Assembly (NCBI GenBank): GCA_965232515.1
Contig: CBDDPY010000002.1
Span: 992,001 to 1,056,000 of the forward strand
DNA length: 64,000 nt
DNA from: Alphaproteobacteria bacterium
GTDB taxonomy: Bacteria; Pseudomonadota; Alphaproteobacteria; GCA-2731375
Direction: 5' to 3'
A model generated the notes under the pieces. It saw nothing but the letters and a program-made list of their open reading frames with translations. It had not been told where the DNA came from and made no database searches. Position 1 is the stretch's first letter. The number at the start of each line of letters is the position of its first letter. Both the position numbers and the translations under genes were made by a program. Below are positions 4,133 to 45,291 of the stretch, one piece after another.

Positions 4133-4140
4133 GACGCACT

Positions 4141-23729: not shown

Positions 23730-26700
23730 CTAGAACTCTTCCCACTCCTCGTCAGCCTGCTCGGCGACCGCCGCGGCGGCCGCACCGCCACCGCCGACCG
23801 CGGCCACCTTGGTCTCCAGCTTCTTTTGCTGCTGGTGGACCGGATTGCCGCCGGACGGCGCCGAGGCCGGGGCAGGGGCCGAATCCAGGCCCAGCTCGTC
23901 CTCTTCCTCGCCGGTCTTGAAGAAGCTCACCAGCTTCTTCAGATCGTCGACCTGCGCCGTCGTCGAGTGCAGCGCCGCCGTGGTCTCTTCCACCAGGGCC
24001 GCGTTCTGCTGCGTCATCTCGTCCATGTTCGACACCGCCGTGCCGACCTCGTCGATACCCGAGGCCTGTTCCTTGCTGGCCGCGGCGATGTCCGAGATGA
24101 TGTCGGCCACCTTCTTCACCGAGTTGACGATCTCTTCCAGAGAGGTGCCGGCCTTCTGCACTAGGCCGACGCCGTCGCGAACCTGGCTGTCCGAGTTGCT
24201 GATCAGGTCCTTGATCTCCTTGGAGGCCCGACCCGACCGCTGGGCCAGCGCCCGGACCTCGGTGGCGACCACGGCGAAACCCTTGCCGGCCTCGCCGGCG
24301 CGCGCCGCCTCGACCGCCGCGTTCAGCGCCAGCAGGTTGGTCTGGAAGGCGATCTCGTCGATCATGCCGACGATCTCGGTGATCTGCTTCGACGAGTCCT
24401 CGATCTTGCTCATGGCATCGACCGCCGAAGCGACGACGTCGCCGCCGGTGCTGGCCGCATCGCGGGCCGCGACCGCCAGCTGATTGGCCTGCTGGGCGTT
24501 GTCGGCATTCTGGCGCACCGTCGCCGACAGCTCCTCCATCGAGGCCGCGGTCTCCTCCAGCGACGAGGCCTGCTGCTCGGTGCGTGACGACAGGTCGCCG
24601 GCGCCGGCCGCGATTTCCGACGTGGCGTCGCTGACCGTGCCGGTGGCGCCGACGATCCGCTTGGCGATGCCGCCGATCTTCTCGGCCATCTTGTTCGAGT
24701 CGTCCTTCAGCTTCAGGAACGTGCCCTTATAGTCGCCAGCGATGCGCTGGGTCAGGTCGCCCTGGGCCATCGCCGCCATCACCGAGACCGTCTCGTTCAG
24801 GCCGCGGTCGACGGTGCCGACCAGCTCGTTCATACCCTTCGCCAGCTCCAGCATGAAGCCCTGCTTGCCGGATTCCTCCAGCCGCTGGCTGAAGTCGCCG
24901 GCGCCCGCCGAGGCCACCAGTCCGGCAATCTCGTGCTCGACAGCCAGTTGCGCCGTCACGTCGGACCATTCCACCGAGGTGCCGACGCGCTCTCCACCGG
25001 CGCCGAACACCGGCGTCACCACCAGATCGAAGGTCAGACCGGCGACTTCCACACGGCCGTTATGCGTCGAACGCAGGCCGTCCAGCAGGTTGCGCTGATG
25101 CGACGGGTTCTTGTGGAACACGTCGATGTTGGTGCCGATCAGGGTGTTCAGATCGAAGGCCGGCAACTCCTTGCGGATGTCGCCCTCGCGGCTGCGGAAC
25201 AGCTCGATCAGCGCCTTGTTGACATAGACGATGTTGTAGTCGGCATCCGAGATCATGAAGTTGGTCTGGGTGCCGTCCATCGTCGCCTTGGCCCGCGCCA
25301 TCTCCTCGTCGCTGATCAGCTTCTCGGTAATATCCATCCACTGGACAGACGTGGCGATGCGCTCGCCCTTGTCATTGAAGGCCGGCGTCACCACCAGATC
25401 GAAGGTCACGCCGCCGACAGTCAGCCGGCTTTCATGCGGTTGCCGCAGCCCGTTCAGGATGCCGCGCTGGTGCGCGGGGTTCTTGTGGAACACGTCGATG
25501 TTGGTGCCGATCAGGTTCTTGGCGTCGAGGTTCGGCAGATCCTGCCGCATCTCCGCCTCGCGGCTTTCGAACAGCTCGTGCGCCGACTTGTTCATGTAGA
25601 CGATGTTGTAGTCGGTATCGGCAATCATGAAGCTCGCAGACGCGTTGTCCAACGCCGAGCGCGCCTGCGCGGCTTCACGGCCGATTTCGCGGATCTTGTC
25701 CACCGAGCGGGCCATATCGCCCAGCTCGTCCTTCTGGTTCATGCACGGCAGCTCGATGTTCGCATCGCCGCCCGCCAGCAGCTCGACGGCGCCGCTCATG
25801 GCGGAGATGGGACGCGAGATGGCGCGGCCGATCACGAAGGCCAGCAGCGTGCCGACCACCAGCGCGACCAATGCGACGATCAAGCCGACATATTCCGCCG
25901 TCTGAATCGCCGTCGTGGCGCGGGGACCGAGCTCGTCCTGAAGCTGCTTGTTGTGCAGCTTCATGTCTTCCATCTCGCCGGCGACCTTCGGCCCGATCGT
26001 GTCGAGCGTGTCCGAGATGATGGCGTTGCGCTTGGTGATCAGGCCGATGACCTCGTTGAAGGCGGCATGATAGGCGGCGGCGCCGTCGCTGACGTCACTC
26101 GCCAGCCGCTGGCGGGTCGGGTTCTGCAACTCGCTGCGCATCTGGTTCGCGACCTTACCGAATTCGTCCAGTTCCTGGTTCGCCCGGTTGGCGCTCGCCT
26201 CGGAGTTGTCGACCAGGAAGCGGTAGGCATAAAGCCGCGCCAGCAGCAGATGCCGCAGCGCCGCGCCGGCGAGGAAGCTGGCGTCTGGATCGCCGTCTTC
26301 ATAGGCGCTCTGCATGATCTTGGTCAGGTTGCGCTCGGCCTGCGGACCGAGCTCGTTCATCCGCCCGACGACCTCGTTGCGCTTGTGGAACAGTTCGACG
26401 ACCTCGTTGAAGCCGCTCTGATAGGCCTCGATTTCGTTAACCGCCGTCTCGACCGCCTGAATTTCCTCCGGCGCATTGAACAGCTCCGTCGCACCGTTGG
26501 CGACATCGAGCGTGGCCTGCACGCGTTGGCGCACCGCCTCTGCCGACTCGTCCGTCTGCTGCAGGATGAAGTTCTTCACATTCAGTCGCGCCGTCAGCAG
26601 ATTGGCCTGGATCCGTCCCAGCTCGTTGGTCTGGCGGGCCAGTCCGCGGTAGTCGGTGAAATGCTCGTTGGCGCCGACCAGCCCGAAAAACCCGGTGCCG

Positions 26701-26822
26701 GCGGCGATCAACAACAGCACCAGGATCACAGCGGAGCCGACGCCGATTTTCTGACCGACCTTCAGATTAGAGAAAAGGTTGCCGCGTGACTTTTTTCCCG
26801 CGGTTTCGTTCTTCACTGACAT
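23730..26822 (-). CDS. Chemoreceptor MCP1: HBM-like periplasmic sensor, HAMP, 2x Aer2-type PAS, HAMP, MCP signal domain, EWEEF tail
   Basis: Two TM helices around a ~270-aa helical domain with a duplicated LL.ARL motif; [12 protein letters not shown] twice; [20 protein letters not shown]. Confidence 0.93.
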
Positions 26823-27096
26823 GAACTGTTCCTTGGCGACTGATTCGTTTGAAGCAATGCCTGTTACGGCATGTTGACCAGGTTTTGGCCGTGACCCTGG
26901 TCGCCCCCGCCACCGTCGCCACGCACCGAGAATCTCGCTGTCTCACGCCCCCTAAGGCGTACTACAGACAGCCGTATTCAGATCGAAAACAGTAAAAATG
27001 ACATTAAAATATGATATAAATCCATGTTAATAACTTGGTAAATCATGTTGATTTAGTTCAATGTTTTCGTAATTACGGTTAAATATTTAGTATTTT

Positions 27097-28077
27097 CTAA
27101 TAAACTGATTTTTCTGACAATCCGGACCTAAATGCCTGTTTCCGCTTTGCCGCGTACATCGACGCATCGGCGCTGCGGACCAGGACATCGGCATCACGCC
27201 CATGCAGCGGATGGACAGCGACGCCGATGCTGACGCCGAGACGGACAATGTTCCCATAGCGAAGAATCGGCTCGTCGAACGCAGAACGAAGACGTTCGCG
27301 CGCCTGTGCCGCCGCCGCGACGGTGACATCCGTGTCCATCAACAGAACGAATTCGTCGCCGCCCAGCCGGGCGAGGGTGTCGGACTCCCGGGTCCGCGCC
27401 TGCATGCGGGTTGCCGCGGCCCGCAGGGCCGCGTCGCCGGCTTCATGGCCAAGCCTGTCGTTGATCGCCTTGAAGCCGTCGAGGTCCATCAACATCACCG
27501 CCAGCATCTCGCCAGTACGCCGGCAGCGCGCCAAGCCATTCTCCAGGCGGTCGTAAAACAAGGTGCGGCTGGCAAGGCCGGTCAGCGCGTCGTAATAGGC
27601 GAGCTGATGCAGCTCCGCGTGGGCCGCGTGCAAGGCGCGGTTGGTTGCATTCAAGGCCTCGATTTTCTCCGCCAGCTCCCGTCGCGCCTCGACCTCGGCC
27701 GAGACGTCCTTTTGGATACCGACGAAGTTGATCAGGCGGCCGGTCTGGTCGATGACGGGATTGATTGTCAGCTCGTTCCAGAACACCGCGCCGCTCTTGC
27801 GATAATTCAGCAGGCGCAGGGTCACCCCGCGCCGATCGTGCAACGCCGATCGGATGGCGTCGATCGCGTCCGCGTCGGTGTCAGGCCCTTGCAGAAGCCG
27901 GCAGCTGCGCCCGACGACCTCGTTCTCGGCATACCCCGTCAGCGCCAGAAAGGCGGGGTTGGCATAGACGATCGGGTTGTCGGGCAGGTGCGGATCGCTC
28001 AGCACGACGCCCGTCGACGTCGCCGCAACGGCTGCGGCAAAACCCGTATCGACGTCCGGTTTGCCGAGCATACCCAT
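27097..28077 (-). CDS. LOV-type PAS + GGDEF diguanylate cyclase
   Basis: PDNPIVYAN.AF..LTGY...EVVGRSCRLLQG, LLNYRK.G..FWN, GIQ.D; DALTGL, DLDGFK..ND..GH..GD, RESD I-site, GGDEF. Start 28077 or 28071; the longer frame overlaps the tRNA. Confidence 0.88.
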   Translation of the reverse strand: MGMLGKPDVDTGFAAAVAATSTGVVLSDPHLPDNPIVYANPAFLALTGYAENEVVGRSCRLLQGPDTDADAIDAIRSALHDRRGVTLRLLNYRKSGAVFWNELTINPVIDQTGRLINFVGIQKDVSAEVEARRELAEKIEALNATNRALHAAHAELHQLAYYDALTGLASRTLFYDRLENGLARCRRTGEMLAVMLMDLDGFKAINDRLGHEAGDAALRAAATRMQARTRESDTLARLGGDEFVLLMDTDVTVAAAAQARERLRSAFDEPILRYGNIVRLGVSIGVAVHPLHGRDADVLVRSADASMYAAKRKQAFRSGLSEKSVY

Positions 28078-28172
28078 GGCGCCGATCACACACGAAATTC
28101 CCGAATATGGGATTAATCGCACCCATACGCATGCTTGCCCATGGGCCTGAAAAACCATACCTTCCGCTGCGT

Positions 28173-28249
<77 letters not shown>

Positions 28250-28283
28250 ACATGGGTAAATCGGCAATCGGCGGCGATACGGT

Positions 28284-28607
28284 ATGAAGGCGATCATTTA
28301 TCAACCGGCACGAACGGCGATGCAGTCGGGACGCGCCAAGACGAAGGACTGGCTGATCCAATTCGATCAGGAGGCGGCCCGCAAGATCGACCCTCTGATG
28401 GGCTGGACGTCGTCGGCCGATACCAAGCAGCAACTGCAGCTGCGTTTCGACAGCCGCGATGCCGCCATAGCTTTCTGTGACAAGCATGGCCTGCCGTACG
28501 ATGTCCGGGAGCCGCACAAACGCAAGGTACGGCCAAAGTCCTACGCGGAGAATTTCAGCTATTATTCGGTCCGTGGTCCCGGCACCACGCCGCTTCCGCG
28601 CCCTTAG
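28284..28607 (+). CDS. ETC complex I accessory subunit (NDUFS4-like)
   Basis: IYQPAR.AMQSG, DPLMGWTSS.D..QQ..L.F, SYA.NF. Confidence 0.92.
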   Translation: MKAIIYQPARTAMQSGRAKTKDWLIQFDQEAARKIDPLMGWTSSADTKQQLQLRFDSRDAAIAFCDKHGLPYDVREPHKRKVRPKSYAENFSYYSVRGPGTTPLPRP

Positions 28608-28674
28608 CTCAGCTGGATAGAGCAGCTGCCTTCTAAGCAGCAGGTCGCAGGTTCGAGTCCTGCAGGGCGCGCCA
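28598..28674 (+). tRNA. tRNA-Arg (TCT)
   Basis: GCGCCCTTAGCTCAGCTGGATAGAGC, anticodon loop CTTCTAA, GGTTCGAGTCC, GGGCGCGCCA; 77 nt. Confidence 0.97.
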
Positions 28675-28729
28675 CTCCTCGCACATCTGACGGCGGACAA
28701 GCGTCGACGGGTTGCGCCGTCCCTCTACA

Positions 28730-28975
28730 TCAGAGCAATGCGGCGTCGAACCACACCTTCGGTTCCTCGGCGCCAACGCTGAAGCGCCAGTCCCAGGTAG
28801 GGCGCGACCACCGGACACAGCGCGGCGAAGTCTCTGACCCGCACGACATTGACGAAGCCGATGTCGTCGGGATCGGCATCGCCGGTCCAGATATGCCAAC
28901 CCGTTTCCTTGTCCGTCGCCGCGTGCCGCAACCCATGAACGACATCGCTCTGTCCGGACGGCCGAGCCCTCTCTG
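28730..28975 (-). pseudogene. Frameshifted, 5'-truncated immunity-protein (Imm33-like) remnant
   Basis: Frame A: VHGLRH....TGWHIWTG...LCP.V.PYLGL. Frame B continues WRFSVG.EE.KVWFDAALL*. Shift near 28790. Confidence 0.6.
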
Positions 28976-28997
28976 AGTGCGTGATTGCCGACGACGT

Positions 28998-31799
28998 TTA
29001 GAACTCTTCCCACTCGTCGTCCGCTTCGGCGACCGCCGCGGCGGCCGCGCCGCCGCCACCGCCGACCGCGGCCACCTTGGTCGCGATCGTCTGCTGCTGC
29101 TGATGCACGGGGTTCGGCGCGGCGGCCGGCGCGGGGGCAGGGGCCGCGTCCAGGCCCAGCTCGTCCTCCGCCTCGCCGGTCCTGAAGAAGCTCACCAGCT
29201 TCTTCAGATCGTCGACCTGCGCCGTCGTCGAGTGCAGCGCCGCCGTGGTCTCTTCCACCAGGGCCGCGTTCTGCTGCGTCATCTCGTCCATGTTCGAGAC
29301 CGCCGTGCCGACCTCGTCCAGGCCGGAGGCCTGTTCCTTGCTGGCCGCGGCGATGTCCGAGATGATGTCCGCCACCTTCTTCACCGAAGTGACGATCTCC
29401 TCCAGCGAGGTGCCGGCCTTCTGTACCAGGCCGACGCCGTCGCGAACCTGGCTGTCCGAGTTGCTGATCAGGTCCTTGATCTCCTTCGAGGCCTTGCCCG
29501 AGCGCTGGGCCAGGGCCCGGACTTCCGTCGCCACCACGGCGAAGCCCTTGCCGGCTTCGCCGGCGCGCGCCGCCTCGACCGCCGCGTTCAGCGCCAGCAG
29601 GTTGGTCTGGAAGGCGATCTCGTCGATCATGCTCATGATCTCGGTGATCTGCTTCGACGAGTCCTCGATCTTGCTCATGGCATCTACCGCCGAAGCGACC
29701 ACCTCACCGCCATTCGACGCCGCGTCGCGGGCCGCGACCGCCAGCTGATTGGCCTGCTGGGCATTGTCGGCGTTCTGACGCACCGTCGCCGACAGCTCCT
29801 CCATCGAGGCCGCGGTCTCCTCCAGCGACGAGGCCTGCTGCTCGGTGCGCGACGAGAGATCCCCGGCGCCCGACGCGATCTCGGACGTCGCGTCGCTGAC
29901 CGTGCCGGTCGCCGCCACAATGCGCTTGGCGATGCCGCCGATCTTCTCGGCCATCTGGTTCGAGTCGCCCTTCAGCTTGGCGAAGGTGCCCTGGTAGTCG
30001 CCTTCGATACGCTGGGTCAGGTCGCCCTGCGCCATCGCCGACATCACCGAGACCGTCTCGTTCAGGCCCCGGTCGACGGTGCCGACCAGCTGGTTCATGC
30101 CCTTGGCCAGCTCCAGCATGAAGCCCTGCTTGCCGGTCTCCTCCAGCCGCCGGCTGAAGTCGCCCGCGCCCGCCGCCGTCACCAGATCCGCGACCTCGTC
30201 CTCGACCGCCAGCTGCGCCGTCACGTCGGTCCACTCGACCGAGGTCCCGGCCCGCTCGCCGCCCGGTCCGAACACCGGCGTCACGATCAGATCGAAGGTC
30301 AGGCCGGCGACCGAGACCCGGCCGTTGTACGGCGCCTTCAGGCCGTCCAGCAGATTGCGCTGGTGCGACGGGTTCTTGTGGAACACGTCGATGTTGGTGC
30401 CGACCAGATTGTTCAGGTCGAACGCCGGCAGCTCCTGGCGGATGTCCGACTCCCGCGTCCGCATCAGATCGACCAGCGCCTTGTTGGCGTAGACGATGTT
30501 GTAGTCGGCGTCCGCGATCATGAAGTTGGTCGACGCCGCGTCGAGCGTCGACTTCGCCCGCGCCATCTCTTCCTCTGTGACCAGCTTCTCGGTCACGTCC
30601 ATCCACTGCACAGAGGTGGCGATCCGCTCGCCCTGCTCGTTGAAGGCCGGCGTCACCACCAGATCGAAGGTCACCCCGCCGATCGTCAGGCGGCCCTCGT
30701 GCGGCTGCCGCAGCCCGGCCAGGATGCCGCGCTGGTGCGCCGGGTTCTTGTGGAAGACGTCGATGTTGGTGCCGACCAGGTTCTTGGCGTCGAGGTTCGG
30801 CAGGTCCTGCCGCATCTCCGCCTCGCGGCTTTCGAACAGCTCGTGCGCCGACTTGTTCATGTAGACGATGTTGTAGTCGGCGTCCGCGATCATGAAGCTC
30901 GCCGACGCGTTGTCCAGCGCCGAGCGCGCCTGCGCCGCCTGCGAGCCGATCATCCGGATCTTGTCCAGAGAACGGGCGATATCGCCGATCTCATCTTTGT
31001 TGTCCAAGCCGGGCAACTCGGCATTGATGTCGCCGCCCGCCATTTGACCGATGCTGCCGACCATGACCTGCAGCGGACGGCTGACCGAGCGCGTCATGAA
31101 GAACGCCACAATCACGCCGAACAGCAGGCCGCCACCGGCGATGCTCATGATCAGTGTGAGCGCGAACCGCTCGTGCGCCAGGGCGGTCCTGGCCGCGTGT
31201 TCGGTAAAGCTGGCAACCTCGTCGACCAGGGCTTCCAGCTCGTGATCCAGCTTGTCGGCTTCCGCCTCGACCTTTCCGGCCAGCTTGATGGCCTTCTCGA
31301 CCTGCCCGGTCTCCAGCAGGCCGAACACCTCCACGGCGTGCTCGTCGAAGCTCTTATGCGCGATCTCGATCGCCTTCAGGGCACTGGCGACTTTCGCGAA
31401 CTCCGCCCGCACCTCGTCCGTATGCGCATGCTCGACACCGGCTTCCGCCATATGCTCCAGTTCAAGCAACTCGCCGTCCACCTTGTGGCCAAGTTCGCTG
31501 AAGTGTTTGCGCGACTCGTTGAAGTGCGCGACGGCCTCGCTGTGCGACTGCATCTCCTCGCCGTAACGCAAGGCGCGTTCCATGGCGATCGTCTGCTCCA
31601 GCTGGTGCAACGTGACGTTTGTCAGACCGCGTGTCAGCGGGATGTCCTCTTCCGCGATGGTGGTCAGCTCATCGCCGATCTGTCCCATCTGAACGATGCC
31701 CACGGCCGCAATGGCGATGCCGACCGCCAGCAAAATGCCGGCAAGTCCGGCGATACGGGTGGAAATCTTCAGATTGGAGAGACTCAATAGCGCCTTCAT
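28998..31799 (-). CDS. Chemoreceptor MCP2: four-helix-bundle sensor plus shared PAS-PAS-MCP core, EWEEF tail
   Basis: ~150-aa helical periplasmic domain (EDIPLT..L...LHQLEQ); AGGAG RBS before ATG 31799. Confidence 0.93.
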
Positions 31800-32017
31800 T
31801 GCCAGACTCCTGACGTCAGCAACCCCCATTTGGTGAACATCGCGCCCGACGGCGCCCGCATGGCGGCGAGACCCAGGCGCCAGACGCCCGATCCCTTCAT
31901 GCGAAAATCCAATTCAATTTAATTAGATTTCTCTGAAATTTAGGTTAAGCACCTGTGTTAACTTCGCTTCCGATCCGACAATCGATCGTTGACCAATGTC
32001 GGGTCGACGGCCCTGGG

Positions 32018-35000: not shown

Positions 35001-35122
35001 TTCGACCGGTCCCAATTCTCGAAAACGGACTGGCCAACCAGGAACACCATCACGATGATCGGCAGCACCGCGGCCAGGGTCAGTCGCGTGGCGATCTTCA
35101 TATTGCTTATCAATGTCGTCAC
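32018..35122 (-). CDS. Chemoreceptor MCP3: NIT (nitrate/nitrite-sensing) domain plus shared core, EWEEF tail
   Basis: [12 protein letters not shown] and [12 protein letters not shown] motifs; WFD..T.KI..L. Confidence 0.93.
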
Positions 35123-35450
35123 AACGGCACCTTGAAATGCTTTTGTTTGCCCTGCCGCGCCGCGTCCTTGTCAATCAGACCGGGTGACGGCGAGCGTTTC
35201 GTATCGCTCGAATTCGAGCCCAAGGTGCCAATGCGATCTAAAAAATCTCTAAAAATCTCAAAATACCGGATTGTCTAATATTTATGGCCTGCAGGAGCAG
35301 TTTTGCGCCTGTAACAGGATCAGAAGTTTTCGTCGAAGTGTTCCGGCCGCGGACGAGCGCCGATCCAACAAAAAGGCTGCTTCACCAATAGCGGATGAAA
35401 ACATACGGCCACCGTCTGGCCCCTCCACAAGCGCCCCTCGGAAGATGGCG

Positions 35451-35483
35451 AAAACCCGGCCACAGAGACCTGTAGCCGGGCTT
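35451..35483 (-). terminator. Hairpin downstream of MCP4
   Basis: AAACCCGGCCACAG-AGAC-CTGTAGCCGGGCTTT imperfect stem, similar to the hairpin after MCP1. Confidence 0.5.
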
Positions 35484-35509
35484 TGCTCAATCAAAGACGC
35501 CCGGCGGGA

Positions 35510-38302
35510 TCAGAACTCTTCCCAGTCGTCGTCGGCTGGTTCGGCGGCGGCCGCAGCCGCGCCGCCACCGCCGCCGACCGTGGCCACCTTGGTCTCCAGC
35601 TTTTTTTGCTGCCGGTGAACCGGATTGCCGCCGGCCGTCGCCAGGGCCGGGGCGGGGGCAGCATCGAGGTCCAACTCGCCCTCTTCCTCGCCGGTCTTGA
35701 AGAAGCGCACGAGCTTCTTCAGATCATCGGTCTGGCCGGTCATCGAATGCAGCGCCGCCGTGGTCTCCTCCACCAGGGCCGCGTTCTGCTGCGTCATCTC
35801 ATCCATGTTTGTCACCGCCGTACCGACCTCGTCGATCCCCGAGGCCTGCTCCTTGCTGGCCGCGGCAATATCCGAGATGATGTCCGCGACCTTCCTTACC
35901 GAGGTGACGATCTCTTCCAGGGACGTGCCGGCCTTCTGCACCAGCCCGACGCCGTCGCGGACCTGGCTGTCCGAGTTGCTGATCAGGTCCTTGATCTCTT
36001 TCGAGGCCCGGCCCGAGCGCTGCGCCAGGGCACGGACTTCCGTGGCGACAACGGCGAAGCCCTTGCCGGCCTCGCCGGCGCGCGCCGCCTCGACCGCCGC
36101 GTTCAAGGCCAAGAGGTTGGTCTGGAAGGCGATCTCGTCGATCATGCCCATGATCTCGGTGATCTGCTTGGACGAGTCCTCGATCTTGCCCATGGCGTCC
36201 ACCGCCGAGGCCACGACCTCGCCGCCGTTCGACGCCGCGTCGCGGGCGGCGACGGCAAGCTGATTGGCCTGCTGGGCGTTGTCGGCGTTCTGGCGCACCG
36301 TCGCCGACAGCTGCTCCATCGAAGCCGCGGTCTCTTCCAGCGACGAGGCCTGCTGCTCGGTGCGCGACGACAGGTCGCCGGCGCCGGCCGCGATCTCGGC
36401 GTTGGCATCGCTGACCGTACCCGTTGCCGCGACGATCCGCTTGGCGATGCCGCTGATCTTCTCGGCCATTTGGTTCGAGTCGTCCTTGAGCTTCAGGAAG
36501 GTGCCCCGATAGTCGCCTTCGATGCGCCGGGTCAGGTCGCCCTGGGCCATCGCCGACATCACCGACACCGTCTCGTTCAGACCGCGGTCGACGGTGGCGA
36601 CCAACTCGTTCATGCCCTTTGCCAGCTCCAGCATGAAGCCCTGCTTGCCGTCTTCGGCCAGCCGCCGGCTGAAGTCGCCGGCGCCCGCCGAGGCAACAAG
36701 GCCAGCCACTTCTTCCTCGACCGCCAGCTGCGCCGTTATGTCGGTCCACTCGACGGAGGTGCCGACACGCTCGCCATCCGCACCGAAAACCGGCGTCAGG
36801 ACAAGATCGAAGGTCAGGCCGGCGACGGCGATACGGCTACGGTGCGTCAAGCGCAACCCCTCCAGGATGCCGCGCTGGTGCGACGGGTTCTTGTGGAACA
36901 CATCGATGTTGGTGCCGATCAGGGTGTTCAGATCGAAGGCCGGCAACTCCTTGCGGATGTCGCTCTCCCGACTGCGGAACAGCTCGATCAGGGCCTTGTT
37001 CACATAGACGATGTTGTAGTCGGCATCCGAGATCATGAAGTTGGTCGAGGAGCTGTCCATCGTCGCCTTGGCGCGCGCCGCCTCGGTCTCGATCGCCAGC
37101 TTTTCGGTAATGTCCGTCCATTGCACCGCGGTACCGATGCGCGCGCCGGTCGGACTGAAGGCCGGCGTCATCACCAGATCGAAAGTCAGACCGGCAATCG
37201 CCAGCCGGCTCTCATGCGGCTGTCTGAGACCGTCCAGAATGCCGCGCTGATGTGACGGGTTCTTGTGGAATACGTCGATGCTGGTGCCGATCAGGTTCTT
37301 CGCGTCCAGATTCGGCAACTGTTGCCGCAGCTCGGCCTCGCGGCGCTCGAACAGCCGGCGGGCGGCGTCGTTCGTATAGACAATATTGTAGTCGGCGTCC
37401 GCCATCATGAAGCAGGCCGACGCGCCCTCGAGCGCCGACTGCGAGCGGGCGGCGACAACCGCGCTATCTCGGAAAGCCGACAGAGCGCCGGCCATCTGAC
37501 CGATTTCGTCACCCCGGCCCAGACCGGCAATGTCGAAGTCGAAGTTGCCCCGGTCCATCTCGGCGAAATTCTCGGTCACGGCACCGATCGGCCGGACCGT
37601 CGAGCGAACCATGACCAGACCGGCAATCGCGCCGACGCTGACCGCCACGACCGACACCACCAACAGCATGATCAGGCCAGCCTTTTCGTCTCGCTCGGCC
37701 TTCAACGCCGACGCCGCGGTGAATTCGGCCAGTTCCAGCAGCTGCTCCTCGAGCCGGTGGTTCAAGGCGTCTTCCTCGGCCTCGACCTCAAGGGCGGCCT
37801 CGATCGCCCGGGCGACCTCACCGGCCTCGAGCATGGCGATAACGGCAAGCGCGTGTTCGTCGAAGCGGTCGTGCGCGACCGCGATTTCCCGCAAAGTCGT
37901 CGTCACACGAGCGAATTCGGCCTTTGCCGCCGCGCTGTGCGCCAGCGATTGAACCTCGCTCGCCAACACAGAAGCCTCACGCAGTTCCTTGTCGACCTGG
38001 GCGGCCAGTTCCTCGAAACGGTGCTTTGATTCCTTGAAGTGGCCGATGGCGTTCTCGTTGACCTGCATCTCCTCGCCGAACCGCAACGACCGCTCGAGCG
38101 CGATCGACTGCTCGAGCTGGTGAAGAGAGATTTTCATCAAGGCATTGGTAAGTGGAATGTCGACCTCGGCGACTTCCTCCAGCTCCAATCCGATCTTCTG
38201 CATCTTTGCGGCGCCAATCGTGGCAATGATCACGCTGATCGCCAGCAGACCGCCGATCAAGCCATAGAACTTCGTTGAAATCCTCACGTTCGAGAGGCGC
38301 AT
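35510..38302 (-). CDS. Chemoreceptor MCP4: four-helix-bundle sensor (paralogous to the MCP2 sensor) plus shared core, DWEEF tail
   Basis: VDIPLT..L..ISLHQLEQ...ER.LRFGEEMQ; two PAS domains; MCP signal domain. Confidence 0.93.
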   Translation of the reverse strand: MRLSNVRISTKFYGLIGGLLAISVIIATIGAAKMQKIGLELEEVAEVDIPLTNALMKISLHQLEQSIALERSLRFGEEMQVNENAIGHFKESKHRFEELAAQVDKELREASVLASEVQSLAHSAAAKAEFARVTTTLREIAVAHDRFDEHALAVIAMLEAGEVARAIEAALEVEAEEDALNHRLEEQLLELAEFTAASALKAERDEKAGLIMLLVVSVVAVSVGAIAGLVMVRSTVRPIGAVTENFAEMDRGNFDFDIAGLGRGDEIGQMAGALSAFRDSAVVAARSQSALEGASACFMMADADYNIVYTNDAARRLFERREAELRQQLPNLDAKNLIGTSIDVFHKNPSHQRGILDGLRQPHESRLAIAGLTFDLVMTPAFSPTGARIGTAVQWTDITEKLAIETEAARAKATMDSSSTNFMISDADYNIVYVNKALIELFRSRESDIRKELPAFDLNTLIGTNIDVFHKNPSHQRGILEGLRLTHRSRIAVAGLTFDLVLTPVFGADGERVGTSVEWTDITAQLAVEEEVAGLVASAGAGDFSRRLAEDGKQGFMLELAKGMNELVATVDRGLNETVSVMSAMAQGDLTRRIEGDYRGTFLKLKDDSNQMAEKISGIAKRIVAATGTVSDANAEIAAGAGDLSSRTEQQASSLEETAASMEQLSATVRQNADNAQQANQLAVAARDAASNGGEVVASAVDAMGKIEDSSKQITEIMGMIDEIAFQTNLLALNAAVEAARAGEAGKGFAVVATEVRALAQRSGRASKEIKDLISNSDSQVRDGVGLVQKAGTSLEEIVTSVRKVADIISDIAAASKEQASGIDEVGTAVTNMDEMTQQNAALVEETTAALHSMTGQTDDLKKLVRFFKTGEEEGELDLDAAPAPALATAGGNPVHRQQKKLETKVATVGGGGGAAAAAAEPADDDWEEF

Positions 38303-39067
38303 GGCATAACCCCCATCAATTCGAATTGAATGTCAGAAATCTCGTTTCGACGCGACGCCGGAACCGGCTCGGCTTTCGTCCGGGCGCCGGTTCGGCGGCT
38401 GTTCGTTTCTGCGACGAGAGGGGCCGACAGACGGCCTGGCGCTTGCAATTGCCGCAGTCGGCAACGCGCTCTGAACTGTCTTCCAGTTCGACATACGGCT
38501 ATGGACCCCCAGCATCGCCGGCCGGAACTGTTATGGCGGAAAGTCCGCCCATTCCGGATTGCGAGAACAACGCTGGGATAGTCCGAAAGCGGTGAACATA
38601 CGCTTAATGTTGTTCTGTTGTGTGAAATATAGATGCAACTTGCGGGTGGATTTTGACTCAAATCAAACGAGAAATACTTTATCAAGATACAATTTTACTT
38701 TGCTAGCAATCCCGCGACGCAATACTCGGATGACTCTTATCGAAGCCGAAACCGGCATGGCTCGCTCGGTCGGCTCTGCCATGAGAAAGCGGGGCGATCC
38801 CTTGACGACATGCCAACCCGGACGACGATCTTGCATCGATCGACAATCTGTTTTTGACGAACGATCAGTTTGTCAGCGTCGCATTGGACAAAGGTACGAT
38901 CGAACCATGCCATCGCCTTCAATTGGCCGATGCTGAAACACCAATCGGGTGCCAGCCCGAGATTGGGCGGTCTGCCGGAACGTGTCGTGAAGCCCCTACG
39001 GTCTCCTTTGGTTCGGCCGTCCGGTTAACTGGCCGCGCCCTTCGTTCTGAACGGCGCCTGAATAAGC

Positions 39068-41860
39068 CTAATACTCCTGCCAGTCGCCGTCGGCCGGTTC
39101 GATGACAGTTGCCGCGGGGGCAGCGCTGCCGCCGACGGCGGCCACCTTGGTTTCCAGCGTCTTTTGCTGTTGATGAACCGGATTGCCGTCGGGCGTCGGC
39201 AGGGTCGGGGCAGAGGCCGCGTCGAGATCCAGCTCGTCCTCTTCCTTGCCGGTCTTGAAGAAGCGCACCAGCGTCTTCAGATCGTCGATCTGGCCAGTCA
39301 TCGAGTGCAGCGCCGCCGTGGTCTCCTCCACCAGGGCCGCGTTCTGCTGCGTCATCTCGTCCATGTTCGACACCGCCGTGCCGACCTCGTCGATGCCCGA
39401 GGCCTGTTCCTTGCTGGCCGCGGCGATGTCCGAGATGATGTCCGCCACCTTCTTCACCGAGGTGACGATCTCTTCCAGGGACGTGCCGGCCTTCTGCACC
39501 AGACCGACGCCGTCGCGGACTTGGCTGTCCGAGTTGCCGATCAGCTCCTTGATCTCCTTCGAGGCCTTGCCCGAGCGCTGCGCCAGCGCCCGGACCTCGG
39601 TGGCGACAACGGCGAAGCCCTTGCCGGCTTCGCCGGCCCGCGCCGCCTCGACCGCCGCGTTCAAGGCCAAGAGGTTGGTCTGGAAGGCGATCTCGTCGAT
39701 CATGCCCATGATCTCGGTGATCTGCTTCGACGAGCTCTCGATCTTGCTCATGGCGTCCACCGCCGAGGCCACGACCTCGCCGCCGTTCGACGCCGCGTCG
39801 CGGGCCGCGACGGCAAGCTGGTTCGCCTGCTGAGCGTTGTCGGCGTTCTGGCGCACCGTGGCCGACAGCTCCTCCATCGAAGCCGCGGTCTCTTCCAGCG
39901 ACGAGGCCTGCTGCTCGGTGCGCGACGAGAGATCCCCGGCGCCCGACGCGATCTCCGACGTCGCGTCGCTGACCGTGCCGGTCGCGCCGACGATCCGCTT
40001 GGCGATGCCGCCGATCTTCTCGGCCATCTGGTTCGAGTCGTCCTTGAGCTTCAGGAAGGTGCCCCGATAGTCGCCTTCGATGCGCCGGGTCAGATCGCCC
40101 TGGGCCATGGCCGACATCACCGAGACCGTCTCGTTCAGGCCGCGGTCGACGGTGCCGACCAGCTCGTTCATGCCTTTCGCCAGCTCCAGCATGAAGCCCT
40201 GCTTGCCGGCTTCTTCCAGCCTAGTGCTGAAGTCGCCGGCGCCGGCCGCCTGCACCAGTTCAGCGATCTCGTGCTCAACCGCGAGCTGCGCCGTCACATC
40301 GGACCATTCCACCGAGGTGCCGACACGCTCGCCGCCCGGCCCGAACACCGGCGTCACTGTCAGGTCGAAAGTCAGGTCCGCGACCGTGATCCGGCCGTAA
40401 TGCGGCGCCGTCAGACCGTCCAACAGGTTGCGCTGATGTGACGGGTTCTTGTGGAACACGTCGATATCGGTGCCGACCAGGTTGTTCAGGTCGAACGCCG
40501 GCAACTCCTGACGAATCTCGCCCTCGCGGCCGCGGAACAACTCGACCAGCGCCTTGTTGATATAGACGATGTTGTAGTCGGCGTCCGCGATCATGAAATT
40601 GGTCGACGTGCCGTCTATGGTCGCCTTGGCCCGCGCCATCTCCTCTTCCGTCGCCAGCTTCTCGGTGATGTCGGTCCATTGAACCGAGGTGGCGATACGC
40701 TCGCCCTTGTCGTTGAAGGCCGGCGTCACGATCAGATCGAAGACCACGCCGCCGATCGTGAGGCGGCTTTCGTGCGGTTGCCGCAGCCCGTCCAGGATGC
40801 CGCGCTGATGCGCCGGGTTCTCGTGGAACATGTCGATGTTGGCGCCGATCAGGTTCCTGGCATCGAGGTTCGGCAGATCCTGCCGCATCTCCGCCTCGCG
40901 CGCCTCGAACAGTTCCTGGGCCGATTGGTTCACGTAGACGATGTTGAAATCGGCATCGGCAATCATGAAGTTCGCCGATGCATTGTCCAACGCCGACTGC
41001 GCCCGCGCGGCTACAGCGCCCGTCTCTTGTATCTCGACCAAAGCTCGCGCCAGGCCGCCAATTTCATCCGCACGGTCTGCCGCAGGTAGGTGCAGAGAAC
41101 TGACACCCGCTTTCACGTCTTGCACATAGGAAGCCATGCGCGACAGTGGCTGCGTGACAAGACGAGTCGCCGCACTCGACACGGCGACAAGAACGATGCC
41201 GGCAAACAGAATTGCAATCATGATGACGTTGGTCAGTTCCTGACCGGCCGCCAACTGACCATCAATGGCCGTTGAAACCTCAAGAATGCCGCGAACATCG
41301 CCAAGCCGCCAATCGGCCTTTGGTGTATCGGGGTGGGAATTGTGACAGTCAACGCAGCCCTGCAACTGCATACGGTCGGCAATCGCGACGCGGACCGTTT
41401 CCTTCCCATCGACCGTTTCACGGCGGACGAAAGTCGTGTCTGGATTGCTATTGAGGTATTCCCACGCCTGTTGCTGGAAATCGTCCAACCGGCGATCGGT
41501 ACGGTTAGGAAATGGATAGGCGCTGTAGAGATTTATTGTCGTGTCCCGCTCTCGCAACAATCGACTCAGATCATGAATGAACGTCGCCGGCAGGGGGATG
41601 GCGTTCGGATCCGCGGCGTGATTGATGCTGGGCTTCAGGGCACCGCTTTTCTTCGCTTTGACAATCACGTTTTTGGTGTAGTAGCCGCGAATGGTCTTGA
41701 ACTGATTGACAGTTTCCGTCGCTGACAACGCGGCGGCGTCGGTGGCATTCGACGCGATAATCCGCGGAATGAGCAACCCGGCCGAAATCACCAGAATCAA
41801 TAAGGCGATTGGAGTTGGAAGTATAAGTTTCCAAGCTAGACGTCGAGAAAGAAATTTCAT
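39068..41860 (-). CDS. Chemoreceptor MCP5: periplasmic c-type heme (DUF3365/Tll0287-like) sensor plus shared core, DWQEY tail
   Basis: RGYYT, IPLPATFIHDL, LYS.YPFPNR, CVDCHNSHP, W.LGDVRG.LE; GGGG RBS before ATG 41860. Confidence 0.92.
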   Translation of the reverse strand: MKFLSRRLAWKLILPTPIALLILVISAGLLIPRIIASNATDAAALSATETVNQFKTIRGYYTKNVIVKAKKSGALKPSINHAADPNAIPLPATFIHDLSRLLRERDTTINLYSAYPFPNRTDRRLDDFQQQAWEYLNSNPDTTFVRRETVDGKETVRVAIADRMQLQGCVDCHNSHPDTPKADWRLGDVRGILEVSTAIDGQLAAGQELTNVIMIAILFAGIVLVAVSSAATRLVTQPLSRMASYVQDVKAGVSSLHLPAADRADEIGGLARALVEIQETGAVAARAQSALDNASANFMIADADFNIVYVNQSAQELFEAREAEMRQDLPNLDARNLIGANIDMFHENPAHQRGILDGLRQPHESRLTIGGVVFDLIVTPAFNDKGERIATSVQWTDITEKLATEEEMARAKATIDGTSTNFMIADADYNIVYINKALVELFRGREGEIRQELPAFDLNNLVGTDIDVFHKNPSHQRNLLDGLTAPHYGRITVADLTFDLTVTPVFGPGGERVGTSVEWSDVTAQLAVEHEIAELVQAAGAGDFSTRLEEAGKQGFMLELAKGMNELVGTVDRGLNETVSVMSAMAQGDLTRRIEGDYRGTFLKLKDDSNQMAEKIGGIAKRIVGATGTVSDATSEIASGAGDLSSRTEQQASSLEETAASMEELSATVRQNADNAQQANQLAVAARDAASNGGEVVASAVDAMSKIESSSKQITEIMGMIDEIAFQTNLLALNAAVEAARAGEAGKGFAVVATEVRALAQRSGKASKEIKELIGNSDSQVRDGVGLVQKAGTSLEEIVTSVKKVADIISDIAAASKEQASGIDEVGTAVSNMDEMTQQNAALVEETTAALHSMTGQIDDLKTLVRFFKTGKEEDELDLDAASAPTLPTPDGNPVHQQQKTLETKVAAVGGSAAPAATVIEPADGDWQEY

Positions 41861-42033
41861 AATGAAGACCCCCATGATTTCAAAAAACATTAGATATTTT
41901 TAATAAATAAAATACTAAATTAGATGACTACTTTGCTTGCATTTGTACTCATCTGCACCATAGAACTATTTATGAGTGCAATTTCTCTGGATTAAACAAT
42001 TTTTGATAACACCTCCTCGAAAGTAGAGTTGTC

Positions 42034-42070
42034 AGACAAAAGGGCCCGGCCGCATTGGCTGCAGCCGGGC
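42034..42070 (-). terminator. Intrinsic terminator after MCP6
   Basis: Minus strand GCCCGGCTGCA-GCCAA-TGCGGCCGGGC followed by CCTTTTG. Confidence 0.6.
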
Positions 42071-42102
42071 ATATGGGCTCCCAAGGGATTGGAAGAGGGG
42101 GG

Positions 42103-45100
42103 CTAGAACTCTTCCCACTCGTCGTCGGCCTGCTCGGCGACCGCCGCCGCAGCCGCGCCGCCGCCACCGCCGACCGCGGCCACATTCTTCGCCAGCGTCT
42201 GCTGCTGCTGATGCACCGGATTGCCATCTGATCCAGGGTCAGGGGCAGTATCCGGCTCCAGCTCTTCCTCTTTCTCGCCGGTCTTGAAGAAGCGCACCAG
42301 CGTCTTCAGATCGTCGATCTGGCCGGTCATCGAGTGCAGCGCCGCCGTGGTCTCCTCCACCAGGGCCGCGTTCTGCTGCGTCATCTCGTCCATGTTCGAC
42401 ACCGCCGTGCCGACCTCGTCGATGCCCGAAGCCTGCTCCTTGCTGGCCGCGGCGATGTCCGAGATGATGTCCGCCACCTTCTTCACCGAGGTGACGATCT
42501 CCTCCAGTGACGCGCCGGCCTTCTGCACCAGCCCGACGCCGTCGCGCACCTGGCTGTCCGAGTTGCTGATCAGCTCCTTGATCTCCTTCGAGGCCTTGCC
42601 CGAACGCTGCGCCAGCGCCCGGACCTCGGTGGCGACAACGGCGAAGCCCTTGCCGGCTTCGCCGGCCCGCGCCGCCTCGACCGCCGCGTTCAGCGCCAGC
42701 AGGTTGGTCTGGAAGGCGATCTCGTCGATCATGCCCATGATCTCGGTGATCTGCTTCGACGAGCTCTCGATCTTGCTCATGGCGTCCACCGCCGAGGCCA
42801 CGACCTGACCGCCGTTCGACGCCGCGTCGCGGGCGGCGACAGCCAGCTGATTGGCCTGCTGGGCGTTGTCGGCGTTCTGACGCACCGTCGCCGACAGCTC
42901 CTCCATCGAGGCCGCGGTCTCCTCCAGCGACGAGGCCTGCTGCTCGGTGCGCGACGAGAGATCCCCGGCGCCCGACGCGATCTCCGACGTCGCGTCGCTG
43001 ACCGTGCCGGTCGCGCCGACGATCCGCTTGGCGATGCCGCCGATCTTCTCGGCCATCTGGTTCGAGTCGTCCTTGAGCTTCAGGAAGGTGCCCCGATAGT
43101 CGCCTTCGATGCGCCGGGTCAGATCGCCCTGGGCCATGGCCGACATCACCGAGACCGTCTCGTTCAGGCCGCGGTCGACGGTGCCGACCAGCTCGTTCAT
43201 GCCTTTCGCCAGCTCCAGCATGAAGCCCTGCTTGCCGTCTTCCGCCAGCCGCCGGCTGAAGTCGCCCGCGCCGGCCGCCTGTACCAGATCCGCGACCTCG
43301 TCCTCGACGGCCAGTTGCGCCGTTACGTCGGTCCACTGTACCGAGGTGCCGACCCGCTCGCCGTTCGGCCCGAACACCGGCGTCACGATCAAGTCGAAGG
43401 TCAGACCCGCGACTTCGACCCGGCCATTGTGCGGTGCTCGCAACCCATTCAGCAGGTTGCGCTGGTGCGACGGGTTCTTGTGGAACACGTCGATGTTGGT
43501 GCCGATCAGGTTGTTCAGATCGAAGGCCGGCAGCTCCCTGCGGATGTCGCCCTCGCGGCCGCGGAACAGCTCGACCAGCGCCTTGTTGACATAGACGATG
43601 TTGTAGTCGGCGTCCGCGATCATGAAGTTGGCCGACGCCGCATCCAAGGTCGACTTGGCCCGCGCCATCTCCTCCTCGGCCGCCAGCTTGTCGGTGATGT
43701 CGGTCCATTGAACCGAGGTGGCGATACGCTCGCCCTTGTCGTTGAAGGCCGGCGTTACCACCAGATCGAAGGTCACGCCGCCGATCTTCAAACGGCTCAC
43801 ATGCGGGTTGCTCAGGCCGGCCAGGATGCCACGCTGATGCGTCGGGTTCTTGTGGAAGTCGTCGATATTGCTGCCGATCAGGTTCCTGGCGTCGAGATTC
43901 GGCAGATCCTGCCGTAACTCCGCCTCACGGCTTTCGAACAGCTCTTGTGCCGCCTTGTTCATGTAGACGATATTGTAGTCGGCGTCGGCGATCATGAAGT
44001 TGGCCGAGGCCGCGCCCAAAGCCGATTGGGACCGAACCGCTCGAACGCTGGTCTCCTGCAGCGAGATCAACGCGGTCGTCATGGCGCCGATTTCGTCGGC
44101 GCGCTCGGCCGGCGGCACGTCGAACTGCGTATCGCCCTCGGCCAGCCGCGTCATCGCATCGGTCACGGCGTTGATCGGCCGGGTCATGCTTCGCGCAAAC
44201 CACGCGCCGATACAGCCGATCACGACGACGATAGCGGTCGCGACCGCGACCAGGTAAATCAGCAGGTGATTCACCGGCGCCAGCACTTCGGCCTCATCGA
44301 TCTCGGCCATGATGGCCCAGGTCGTGCCGAGGAACTCCAGAGCGCCGTAGGCCGACAGGACGGGAATACCGCGGTAGTCCGGCGTCACCATCACGCCACT
44401 CTCGCCGTCCAAAGCCCGGCGCACCGTCTCGGTGTCGACCTCCACCTTAAGGATGGTCGATTCCTGGGCGAACCGGGAATCGCTTCGCATCAGCCGATCG
44501 CCGCCGACGATATAGGTCTCGCCGCTCTCGCCCATGCCGGCGGCGGTCTGCATCACCTTGTTCAGTCGGTCGATCGGCATCTGGAACACCAGCACGCCCC
44601 GCAGCCGGCCGTCCGCATCCAGGATCGACGACGAAATGAAGCTGGCGGCCGCGCCATGGCTCGGCGCATAGGGTTTGAAGTCAAAGAACTGGTGGCTGTC
44701 GCGTTTCGCCGCATCCCGGGCCGCGCGAAACGCGTTGCCCAGATCGGTTTCCCGCCATTTGCCGGTGTTCACATTGGTCGCGTAGTCCAGCTCCTTGAAG
44801 ACCGTGTAGACCAGGTTGCCGTCGGTATCGAACAGAAAGATGTCGTAGTAGCCCCGTTCGCGCAGAAACGTGCGCAGCCAGGGATGGTATTCGGCGTGCA
44901 CGGCGCTGTAGCGCGAGCCGTCCTCGGCATCGTCGAGGTTTTCCTTCTGGCCCGTCGGATGCGGATTATCGTCGATATAGGCCTTTTGCAGATACGCCGT
45001 CGGCGCCGGCAGCTGGCGCCAAGCCTCTGAAAACGCCTCGAGCGCGGTCAACGCCGTCGGGTTGCTCGACATCGTCCGAAGGTCCTGTCGGATCGATTCG

Positions 45101-45291
45101 AGATAACGCTCCAGATCGTCCTTTTTGGTCGCTTCGAGAGCCGCCAGTTTCTCCGACGCCGCCGCCAACAGGCTTTCCGACGACGTGGTGAAACTGACCA
45201 GTGAGGCAATTGCCGTCGACGCGAACGCCAGCAGCACCATGGTTGTCGTCAGCTTGGCCGCGATCTTGATGTCACGTATCGCGCTGAACAT
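42103..45291 (-). CDS. Chemoreceptor MCP6: large dCache-type sensor plus shared core, EWEEF tail
   Basis: YI..NP.P.GQK..L, GYYDIFL.D.DG..VYTV.KE.D.ATN, DF.PY.PS, GESGETYIVG.D.LMRSDSRF, DYRG..VLSAY; GGAGG RBS. Confidence 0.93.
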   Translation of the reverse strand: MFSAIRDIKIAAKLTTTMVLLAFASTAIASLVSFTTSSESLLAAASEKLAALEATKKDDLERYLESIRQDLRTMSSNPTALTALEAFSEAWRQLPAPTAYLQKAYIDDNPHPTGQKENLDDAEDGSRYSAVHAEYHPWLRTFLRERGYYDIFLFDTDGNLVYTVFKELDYATNVNTGKWRETDLGNAFRAARDAAKRDSHQFFDFKPYAPSHGAAASFISSSILDADGRLRGVLVFQMPIDRLNKVMQTAAGMGESGETYIVGGDRLMRSDSRFAQESTILKVEVDTETVRRALDGESGVMVTPDYRGIPVLSAYGALEFLGTTWAIMAEIDEAEVLAPVNHLLIYLVAVATAIVVVIGCIGAWFARSMTRPINAVTDAMTRLAEGDTQFDVPPAERADEIGAMTTALISLQETSVRAVRSQSALGAASANFMIADADYNIVYMNKAAQELFESREAELRQDLPNLDARNLIGSNIDDFHKNPTHQRGILAGLSNPHVSRLKIGGVTFDLVVTPAFNDKGERIATSVQWTDITDKLAAEEEMARAKSTLDAASANFMIADADYNIVYVNKALVELFRGREGDIRRELPAFDLNNLIGTNIDVFHKNPSHQRNLLNGLRAPHNGRVEVAGLTFDLIVTPVFGPNGERVGTSVQWTDVTAQLAVEDEVADLVQAAGAGDFSRRLAEDGKQGFMLELAKGMNELVGTVDRGLNETVSVMSAMAQGDLTRRIEGDYRGTFLKLKDDSNQMAEKIGGIAKRIVGATGTVSDATSEIASGAGDLSSRTEQQASSLEETAASMEELSATVRQNADNAQQANQLAVAARDAASNGGQVVASAVDAMSKIESSSKQITEIMGMIDEIAFQTNLLALNAAVEAARAGEAGKGFAVVATEVRALAQRSGKASKEIKELISNSDSQVRDGVGLVQKAGASLEEIVTSVKKVADIISDIAAASKEQASGIDEVGTAVSNMDEMTQQNAALVEETTAALHSMTGQIDDLKTLVRFFKTGEKEEELEPDTAPDPGSDGNPVHQQQQTLAKNVAAVGGGGGAAAAAVAEQADDEWEEF

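Follow-up and report, generated by a model that had tools for sequence, protein, structure and literature searches.

An alphaproteobacterial family of chemoreceptor genes with exchanged periplasmic sensors on an Aer2-type PAS stalk

Aer2 receptors are methyl-accepting chemotaxis proteins (MCPs) defined by an "Aer2 core," a PAS-heme domain directly joined to a di-HAMP and a kinase control module (PMC10107281). In their PAS domains an Eη His binds heme and a "universally conserved" Iβ Trp stabilises O2, and an Hβ Leu in the distal pocket and a DxT motif have also been described (PMC10107281); in the Pseudomonas aeruginosa receptor PaAer2 (McpB) the heme ligand is H234 (PMC13401364). Here we compare with these receptors six MCP genes, M1 to M6, in a stretch of 64,000 nucleotides from an Alphaproteobacteria bacterium (GenBank assembly GCA_965232515.1, contig CBDDPY010000002.1, positions 992,001 to 1,056,000 of the forward strand). 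The whole stretch is referred to as the window, and positions are numbered from its first nucleotide. The six genes share an Aer2-type core, and their N-terminal sensors belong to five Pfam families.

PaAer2 resembles the window proteins in a PAS and di-HAMP region that aligns with their PAS2 and di-HAMP without gaps over 211 residues (structure 3VOL), in its xWEEF-type tail and in a collinear kinase control module of the 36-heptad (36H) type. It differs in being a soluble protein, encoded in the che2 cluster, with three HAMP domains at its N-terminus and a single PAS; the window proteins have two transmembrane (TM) segments with a periplasmic sensor, two PAS domains and only one N-terminal HAMP, and the window contains no che cluster. 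Aer2 of Vibrio cholerae (dual PAS-heme) and of V. vulnificus (VvAer2, tri-PAS-heme) share with the window proteins tandem PAS-heme domains directly before the di-HAMP, and there the upstream PAS modulates the last one (PMC10107281). The Vibrio receptors are soluble and cluster-encoded, unlike those of the window, in which PAS1 and PAS2 both keep the His and the Trp. The Leptospira interrogans receptor LiAer2 is membrane-embedded, as the first-pass annotation of this DNA had noted, and has a periplasmic ligand-binding domain before its PAS-heme domains and Aer2 core; a combination of O2 with the sensing of small molecules has already been proposed for this receptor (PMC10107281, section 3.5). 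It is described as having three PAS domains and hexacoordinate heme and as a single gene of a spirochete, in all of which it differs from the window set.

Two further systems are comparable in part. Tlp2, Tlp3 and Tlp4 of Campylobacter jejuni are MCP paralogs whose signalling domains are identical and whose periplasmic sensors have diverged to ~30% identity, and separate trees have been given for their sensor and signalling parts (PMC9769880); however, all three have dCache_1 sensors, belong to the 28H class and have no PAS-heme stalk, whereas the window set has sensors of five families. The M5 sensor has the CxxCH motif of the sCache_heme family (DUF3365/Tll0287; Geobacter GSU0935 and GSU0582), and its predicted structure resembles 5B82 and 3B42. 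The relatives that we found are mostly plain sCache_heme-HAMP-MCP proteins with no or one PAS, whereas M5 adds two cytoplasmic PAS domains of the b-heme type and would have three hemes per chain.

The first-pass annotation had proposed an undescribed system here, and this cannot stand in that form: the Aer2 core is defined, LiAer2 is described, the integration idea is in print (PMC10107281) and the architecture is common (see below). Searches of the Creative Commons-licensed full text of PMC and bioRxiv gave no paper in which tandem families of Aer2-type receptors with sensors are described. What sets the locus apart is how many paralogs it brings together, along with the evidence of cassette swapping and gene conversion. 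Modular exchange of sensors on an Aer2 stalk is well supported here, and the receptor family concerned has in part been described before.

The six MCP open reading frames (ORFs) are all intact and on the minus strand, encode 930-1067 aa and span 23730-45306 (Table 1). They had been taken for one six-gene array. Their common orientation holds, but they are not contiguous and form a 1+5 arrangement, M1 being set apart from M2-M6 by a LOV-GGDEF gene, a tRNA-Pro gene, an NDUS4-like gene and a tRNA-Arg gene. The contig, of 7.33 Mb, carries a seventh paralog beyond the window, P0011, which has a NIT sensor. Two starts need comment. The database version of M2 begins 10 codons downstream of the ORF start and has 933 aa, and the M6 end given previously, 45291, is an ATG five codons inside the M6 ORF; the database protein P0007 (1062 aa) starts there, and this ATG is probably the M6 start.

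Table 1. Receptor genes, their segments and the features between them (positions in the window; TM, transmembrane segment)
Feature	Position	Strand	Description
M1	23730-26822	-	1030 aa; TM-HBM-TM-HAMP cassette 25659-26822 and Aer2-type core
M1 core segments	PAS1 25299-25658; PAS2 24927-25286; diHAMP 24564-24908; kinase control 23910-24563	-	
M1 linker and EEWEEF tail	23733-23909	-	
M2	28998-31829	-	943 aa; TM-4HB-TM-HAMP cassette 30924-31829 and core; tail DEWEEF
M2 core segments	PAS1 30564-30923; PAS2 30192-30551; diHAMP 29829-30173; kinase control 29175-29828	-	
M3	32018-35122	-	1034 aa; TM-NIT-TM-HAMP cassette 33950-35122 and core; tail DEWEEF
M3 PAS domains	PAS1 33590-33949; PAS2 33218-33577	-	
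M4	35510-38302	-	930 aa; TM-4HB-TM-HAMP cassette 37439-38302 and core; tail DDWEEF
M5	39068-41890	-	940 aa; cassette of TM, c-heme Cache (Tll0287-like), TM and HAMP 40997-41890, and core; tail GDWQEY
M6	42103-45306	-	1067 aa; TM-dCache_1-TM-HAMP cassette 44026-45306 and core; tail DEWEEF
LOV-GGDEF gene	27097-28200	-	between M2 and M1; LOV motif GRSCRLLQG
tRNA-Pro	28173-28249	+	Rfam match
NDUS4-like gene	28284-28607	+	between the two tRNAs
tRNA-Arg	28598-28674	+	Rfam match
Terminator-like GC hairpin and T-run	42037-42070	-	33 nt past M6 stop codon; consensus/folding match only
Terminator-like hairpin after M4	35449-35482		consensus/folding match only
Terminator-like hairpin after M1	23668-23700		consensus/folding match only

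The six cores align without gaps over 583 codons, from PAS1 to FF(K/R)TG, and their proteins are 84.4-98.3% identical in pairs, which bears out the nearly identical C-terminal part reported at first; the most diverged core is that of M4. By segment, pairwise identity is 94-99.5% in the kinase control module, 89-100% in the di-HAMP and 72-97% in each PAS domain; between PAS1 and PAS2, identity is 55-63%. When a 351-residue PAS1-PAS2-diHAMP piece of M2 was searched against the PDB, its PAS2 and di-HAMP matched PaAer2 (residues 19-229 of 3VOL, E 2.5e-68), PAS1 matched the PaAer2 PAS structure 4HI4 (E 9e-36) and PAS2 matched the V. cholerae PAS structure 6CEQ (E 2e-18). The motifs FH[KE]NP.HQ and V[QE]W.D occur, as first noted, in 12 of 12 PAS domains. 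When residues of the 4HI4 chain are numbered from the tag onwards, His234 is the first His of the FHKNP motif, and Leu264 and Trp283 are the Leu of F-x-L-D and the Trp. The heme His, the O2 Trp, the Hβ Leu (in TFDL) and the DxT motif (in W-x-D-x-T) are likewise present in all 12, and with these residues and the matches to 3VOL and 4HI4 the domains can be assigned to the Aer2 type. No further Aer2-type PAS was found in the window, the next-best ORF having E 0.12 with the PAS profile. Two candidates for an additional PAS domain of this type were rejected: 21229-22386 is a LuxR-type regulator and the other is the LOV-GGDEF gene.

The layout that defines the Aer2 core, in which the last PAS leads directly into the di-HAMP and then the kinase control module, is found in all six proteins. 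The HAMP and kinase control region (residues 589-893) aligns without gaps to residues 222-526 of Escherichia coli Tsr, and on the strength of that alignment, rather than of heptad-class hidden Markov models, the module falls in the 36H length class. EQ or EE pairs stand in all six proteins at the positions aligned to Tsr 297, 304, 311 and 493, which we take to be the methylation sites. Beyond the module come linkers of 55-60 aa rich in Ala, Gly, Pro and Gln, and at the extreme C-terminus a pentapeptide of the CheR/CheB type, xWxE(F/Y), with a predicted tethering role. The tails had been called WEEF-type, which is right for five of the six (EWEEF or DWEEF) but not for M5 (DWQEY). Every feature of the Aer2 core that can be looked for in sequence is thus present in the six proteins; the one that is missing is location in an F7 che cluster, which is not seen within the window.

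HAMP, PAS, HAMP_2 and MCPsignal domains were found by Pfam in all six proteins, and the N-terminal sensors are HBM in M1 (38.4 bits against a cut-off of 29.8), 4HB_MCP_1/TarH in M2, NIT (PF08376) in M3 (E 3.2e-66, profile positions 1-238 of 239, with the ligand predicted only), TarH slightly under the Pfam cut-off in M4, whose cassette is 49% identical to that of M2, Tll0287-like (PF11845) in M5 (E 2e-14, 54.7 bits against 24.1) and dCache_1 in M6 (48.9 bits against 45). The earlier description of five unrelated sensor types was right in every assignment but overstated their unrelatedness: HBM, like 4HB, is a helical bundle, and the Cache superfamily includes both the c-heme domain and dCache. 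By hydropathy, every protein has two hydrophobic segments with 175-300 aa between them, and the domains that they enclose are therefore predicted to be periplasmic. The heme c motif of M5, CVDCH at residues 179-183, lies between the TM segments, and CxxCH is invariant in 28 of 28 aligned sequences. An AlphaFold2 model of this sensor (pLDDT 88.4) matches GSU0935 (3B42) and Tll0287 (5B82, TM-score 0.64 on the target) in Foldseek. Signalling-linked members of the Tll0287-like c-heme family are reported in a preprint to behave like NO sensors (bioRxiv 10.64898/2026.02.01.703092). The sensor set hints at respiratory substrates, with NIT pointing to nitrate or nitrite and the c-heme Cache domain to NO or redox state.

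DNA identity between the six genes is 84-95% within the core but falls to near-random levels in the cassettes and in the upstream and downstream flanks; identity breaks near nt 850 of M2, close to the end of HAMP1. M2 and M3 have cores that are 98.3% identical despite unrelated sensors. Relatives of the cassettes are found elsewhere: that of M3 is 68% identical to P0011, that of M1 59% to P0013 and that of M4 74% to P0010, a metagenome protein, and the nearest relatives of the M5 cassette are c-heme-Cache MCPs without PAS domains, at about 60% identity. In a tree of the Aer2 core (quick search; 41 proteins hand-picked from 123, comprising the matches with a sensor and some of the soluble ones), one clade (SH-aLRT 98) unites P0010 with the six cores of the window, and P0011 and P0013, which carry orthologous cassettes, branch just outside it. 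The GC content at third codon positions (GC3) is 0.61 in the M5 cassette as against 0.89 in the M5 core and 0.80-0.86 in the other cassettes, and the intergenic region upstream of M5 has a GC content of 0.41; this suggests that the M5 cassette may have been imported recently, with its own promoter region, and joined to a resident core.

Core pairs differ at 97-267 of 1749 nt, with synonymous divergence (dS) of 0.05-0.9 and a nonsynonymous to synonymous ratio (dN/dS) of about 0.03-0.25; the cores are old copies under selection, neither recent duplicates nor ghosts of the assembly. In a GENECONV-style permutation test (439 polymorphic core sites, 2000 permutations), 4 of the 15 pairs gave 0/2000. 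The identical tract shared by M5 and M6 is 315 nt long and covers 55 polymorphic sites, and none of 2000 permutations gave one as long; it agrees with the low M5-M6 dS of the di-HAMP, 0.049 compared with 0.43-0.58 in the PAS domains. The identity break, the cassette relatives, the GC3 values and the conversion tracts together support a history in which the gene would have been duplicated and its input cassette then replaced at the HAMP1/PAS1 junction, with strong purifying selection and ongoing gene conversion keeping the cores alike.

We give almost no credence to the idea that the repeated core is an assembly artefact, or that the copies are duplicates in decay with no functions of their own. 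Short-read assemblies are indeed broken by 1.9-kb repeats that are 84-95% identical, and contigs from related genomes are short (3.9, 4.3 and 8.6 kb), one of them, L001, beginning and ending in MCP genes; such lengths are what repeated cores would cause. Nevertheless the source contig has 7.33 Mb, the six ORFs are intact, each with its own unique cassette and flanks, and the 97-267 differences per core pair are mostly synonymous; moreover, an independent metagenome-assembled genome (MAG) also has an M1 ortholog and the tRNA/NDUS4 block. We therefore rejected an artefact.

That MAG contig, L001 (3.9 kb, alphaproteobacterial, 92% identical), is the only close locus among those examined. It runs from the last 41 nt of an MCP gene through the tRNA/NDUS4 block (86% identical to window 28951-28100) to a partial M1 ortholog (86% identical to 27033-24652), so that a second genome holds at least two adjacent members of the family. 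L001 has no LOV-GGDEF gene between the block and the M1 ortholog, and this gene would be either an insertion in the source genome or a loss in L001. In the window it has AT-rich flanks and adjoins the tRNA-Pro gene, which its annotated start overlaps by 28 nt.

Little else was found in the spacers. The gap between M5 and M4 (38303-39067, 765 nt) is far longer than the other spacers (188-387 nt); it holds no Pfam-matching ORF, MCP remnant or Rfam match, and neither it nor three other gaps gave MCP or sensor remnants at E <0.03. Compared for conserved promoters or repeats, the intergenic regions showed no common similarity, and a sigma-70 scan matched nothing except repeated coding sequence. An Rfam scan of the window gave the two tRNAs and an unrelated thiamine pyrophosphate (TPP) riboswitch and nothing else.

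A scan of species-representative genomes gave at least 550 relatives in at least 584 stretches, of which the best 80 (79 loci) were examined. Counting as receptors those ORFs with both an Aer2-type PAS and the kinase control module, within ~10 kb on each side, we found one receptor at 70 loci, two at 4, three at 1 and none at 4, which are truncated. As to the question raised by the first-pass annotation, whether such arrays are common in relatives, the architecture is, and more than three receptors were found at none of the 79 loci examined. Topology was called by a simple Kyte-Doolittle rule, a sensor loop being a stretch of 100 aa or more between two TM segments that precede the first PAS. 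In the species-representative genomes, 15 of 85 PAS-bearing ORFs (at 13 loci) have two TM segments before the first PAS, and a sensor loop is present in 27 of 114 non-window matches of our first protein search, which was biased by its c-heme query. Among 1.84 billion 50%-cluster representatives, 1,873 proteins matched at E <=1e-30. Of the 144 top representatives (the best 150 minus six), 68 combine a periplasmic loop with Aer2-type PAS and the MCP module, exactly two PAS domains being found in 50 of these; a further 34 have no TM segment and 30 have short hairpins only. By these counts, the nearest relatives include membrane-bound, sensor-bearing Aer2 proteins at roughly the same frequency as soluble ones, an abundance that the literature does not mirror. 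We also note an Undibacterium sp. MCP gene (locus L049, 8765-11869, + strand) whose product has an N-terminal globin, a periplasmic 4HB domain, HAMP, two Aer2-type PAS domains and di-HAMP, and so putative heme sites of two kinds, three in all; cheW and a response regulator (RR)-PAS-GGDEF-EAL gene come after it.

The reading that we prefer, at a probability of roughly 0.6, is that the six paralogs (seven in the genome) form a transmembrane branch of the Aer2 family in which a variable input cassette is grafted on a constant PAS-heme stalk and O2 is combined with an outside cue. The cassette would consist of TM1, the periplasmic sensor, TM2 and HAMP1, and the stalk of PAS-heme 1, PAS-heme 2, DxT, di-HAMP, a 36H-type kinase control module with four putative Tsr-like methylation sites, the flexible linker and xWxE(F/Y). 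Both PAS domains would bind b-heme and O2, and ligand occupancy of the sensor would be relayed by TM2 and HAMP1 into PAS-PAS-diHAMP; because both inputs would enter this one relay, kinase output should depend on the outside cue and on cytoplasmic O2. Nitrate or nitrite is the likely cue of the NIT sensor and NO or redox state that of the c-heme Cache domain; HBM, 4HB and dCache probably take organic ligands. Heme binding, O2 gating, signal integration and the pathway are what we infer from sequence.

Because the stalks are equal in length and the tips nearly identical, the paralogs should co-assemble in one array. It would be taller than ordinary arrays, with its baseplate further from the membrane than with a Tar-like receptor; in arrays of soluble Aer2 the PAS layers lie ~24.5 and ~30 nm above the baseplate (PMC7184735). 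A taller receptor may pack only with partners of the same length, which would explain why no indel has been tolerated in the core. One CheA, probably of the F7 type, would receive the signals, with CheR and CheB docking on the pentapeptide for adaptation.

The twin PAS-heme stalk might instead not be an O2 input at all. It could respond to another gas or redox signal (NO, CO or oxidation of the heme iron), or be a fixed transmission or spacing module, with the periplasmic sensor as the real input. We think this unlikely: the O2-specific Iβ Trp and the Hβ Leu are kept in 12 of 12 domains, dN/dS is <0.25, and nine of nine Aer2 PAS domains assayed bind O2 with similar affinity (PMC10107281, section 3.5). 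In its favour are the N-terminal PAS domains of multi-PAS Aer2 receptors, which are dispensable or modulating only, and the hexacoordinate heme of LiAer2 (PMC10107281), as well as the greater variability of the PAS domains than of any other core part (72-97% identity) and the N-oxide theme of the NIT and c-heme Cache sensors.

Several points weigh against the preferred reading of a sensor cassette on an O2-responsive stalk. VvAer2 and LiAer2 are reported to require no PAS but the last one to signal, the N-terminal PAS domains being dispensable (PMC10107281), so that the N-terminal input in the window proteins may modulate weakly or not at all. LiAer2 has hexacoordinate hemes and in E. coli responds in the opposite sense to PaAer2 (PMC10107281, PMC13401364), and the behaviour of PaAer2 may for that reason not be simply transferable. 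The sensor-domain assignments are made at the Pfam level, and the M5, M1 and M6 cassettes had no meaningful sequence match in the PDB. The permutation test for gene conversion ignores rate heterogeneity along the gene. No che genes, including cheR and cheB, are present among the 41 flanking ORFs of the 64-kb window, and the F7 assignment is a probable one drawn from relatives in other classes. Finally, since published gammaproteobacterial Aer2 systems do not directly control flagella (PMC10107281), the "navigation" suggested for these receptors is not assured.

The relatives in question are two gammaproteobacterial loci, L013 (6044-19878) and L057 (3228-16843), in which receptors with a periplasmic ligand-binding domain fill the aer2 slot of a cluster ordered cheY-cheA-cheW-MCP(s)-cheR-cheD-cheB-RR/SpoIIE phosphatase; this order fits the F7 stage 1/2 cluster layout described in PMC7184735. 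The slot holds two sensor-bearing MCPs in tandem in L013, and one soluble and one sensor-bearing receptor in L057. It is possible, though we would not favour it, that the window receptors, like Aer2 of Pseudomonas and Vibrio, feed an F7-type alternative pathway (an RR/SpoIIE phosphatase and an anti-sigma partner switch, for example) rather than steer swimming. The RR-SpoIIE phosphatase gene that ends both clusters and the LOV-GGDEF gene inside the window array would fit such a pathway, as would the statement that Aer2 systems do not directly modulate flagellar motility (PMC10107281). Both clusters, however, adjoin flagellar genes (fliF/G/H/I/J and fliK), the window receptor genes are orphans with no che cluster in the window, and F7 systems that do control motility also use a 36H receptor, Tsr-like methylation sites and a pentapeptide (PMC7184735). 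If the alternative pathway were nevertheless correct, outside cues and O2 would be coupled to stress or lifestyle regulation.

A bolder form of the preferred reading, which we put forward tentatively and regard as rather improbable, is that the seven paralogs build a dedicated, extra-tall TM array in which every periplasmic input passes through a shared twin-heme O2 gate: nitrate/nitrite via NIT, NO via the c-heme Cache domain, and organic acids or amino acids via HBM, 4HB and dCache.

Other genes of the window may be mentioned briefly. A eukaryotic-type (alpha) carbonic anhydrase gene (22604-23557, - strand) lies directly downstream of M1, past the terminator-like hairpin. Further away, 5916-10352 (- strand) encodes a 1478-aa protein with a Ser/Thr kinase domain, an nSTAND1 NTPase domain (E 2.5e-128) and a long WD40 propeller region, and near it 11222-12139 (+ strand) encodes a small protein with weak adenylate/guanylate cyclase and FHA matches. 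The TPP riboswitch (4125-4232, - strand, 69.8 bits) is upstream of an ABC transporter ATPase/permease pair (3362-4132 and 2568-3365).

Aer2 receptors have been studied almost only as soluble O2 sensors with unclear output. The window genes are six natural chimeras with one stalk in which the input cassette alone differs, and so a ready-made experimental series that bears on how a periplasmic signal is relayed through PAS-heme domains and on how two inputs are combined in one receptor. If the twin-heme gate were real, the response to alternative electron acceptors and nutrients would be conditional on the O2 status of the cell, and the family would be a living example of the graft of a Tar-like input on an Aer2-like stalk that Ortega et al. 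postulated for F7 evolution. For receptor families more widely, the locus would show how a sensor repertoire may grow, with the cassette replaced at a fixed junction and gene conversion keeping the array-forming part uniform.

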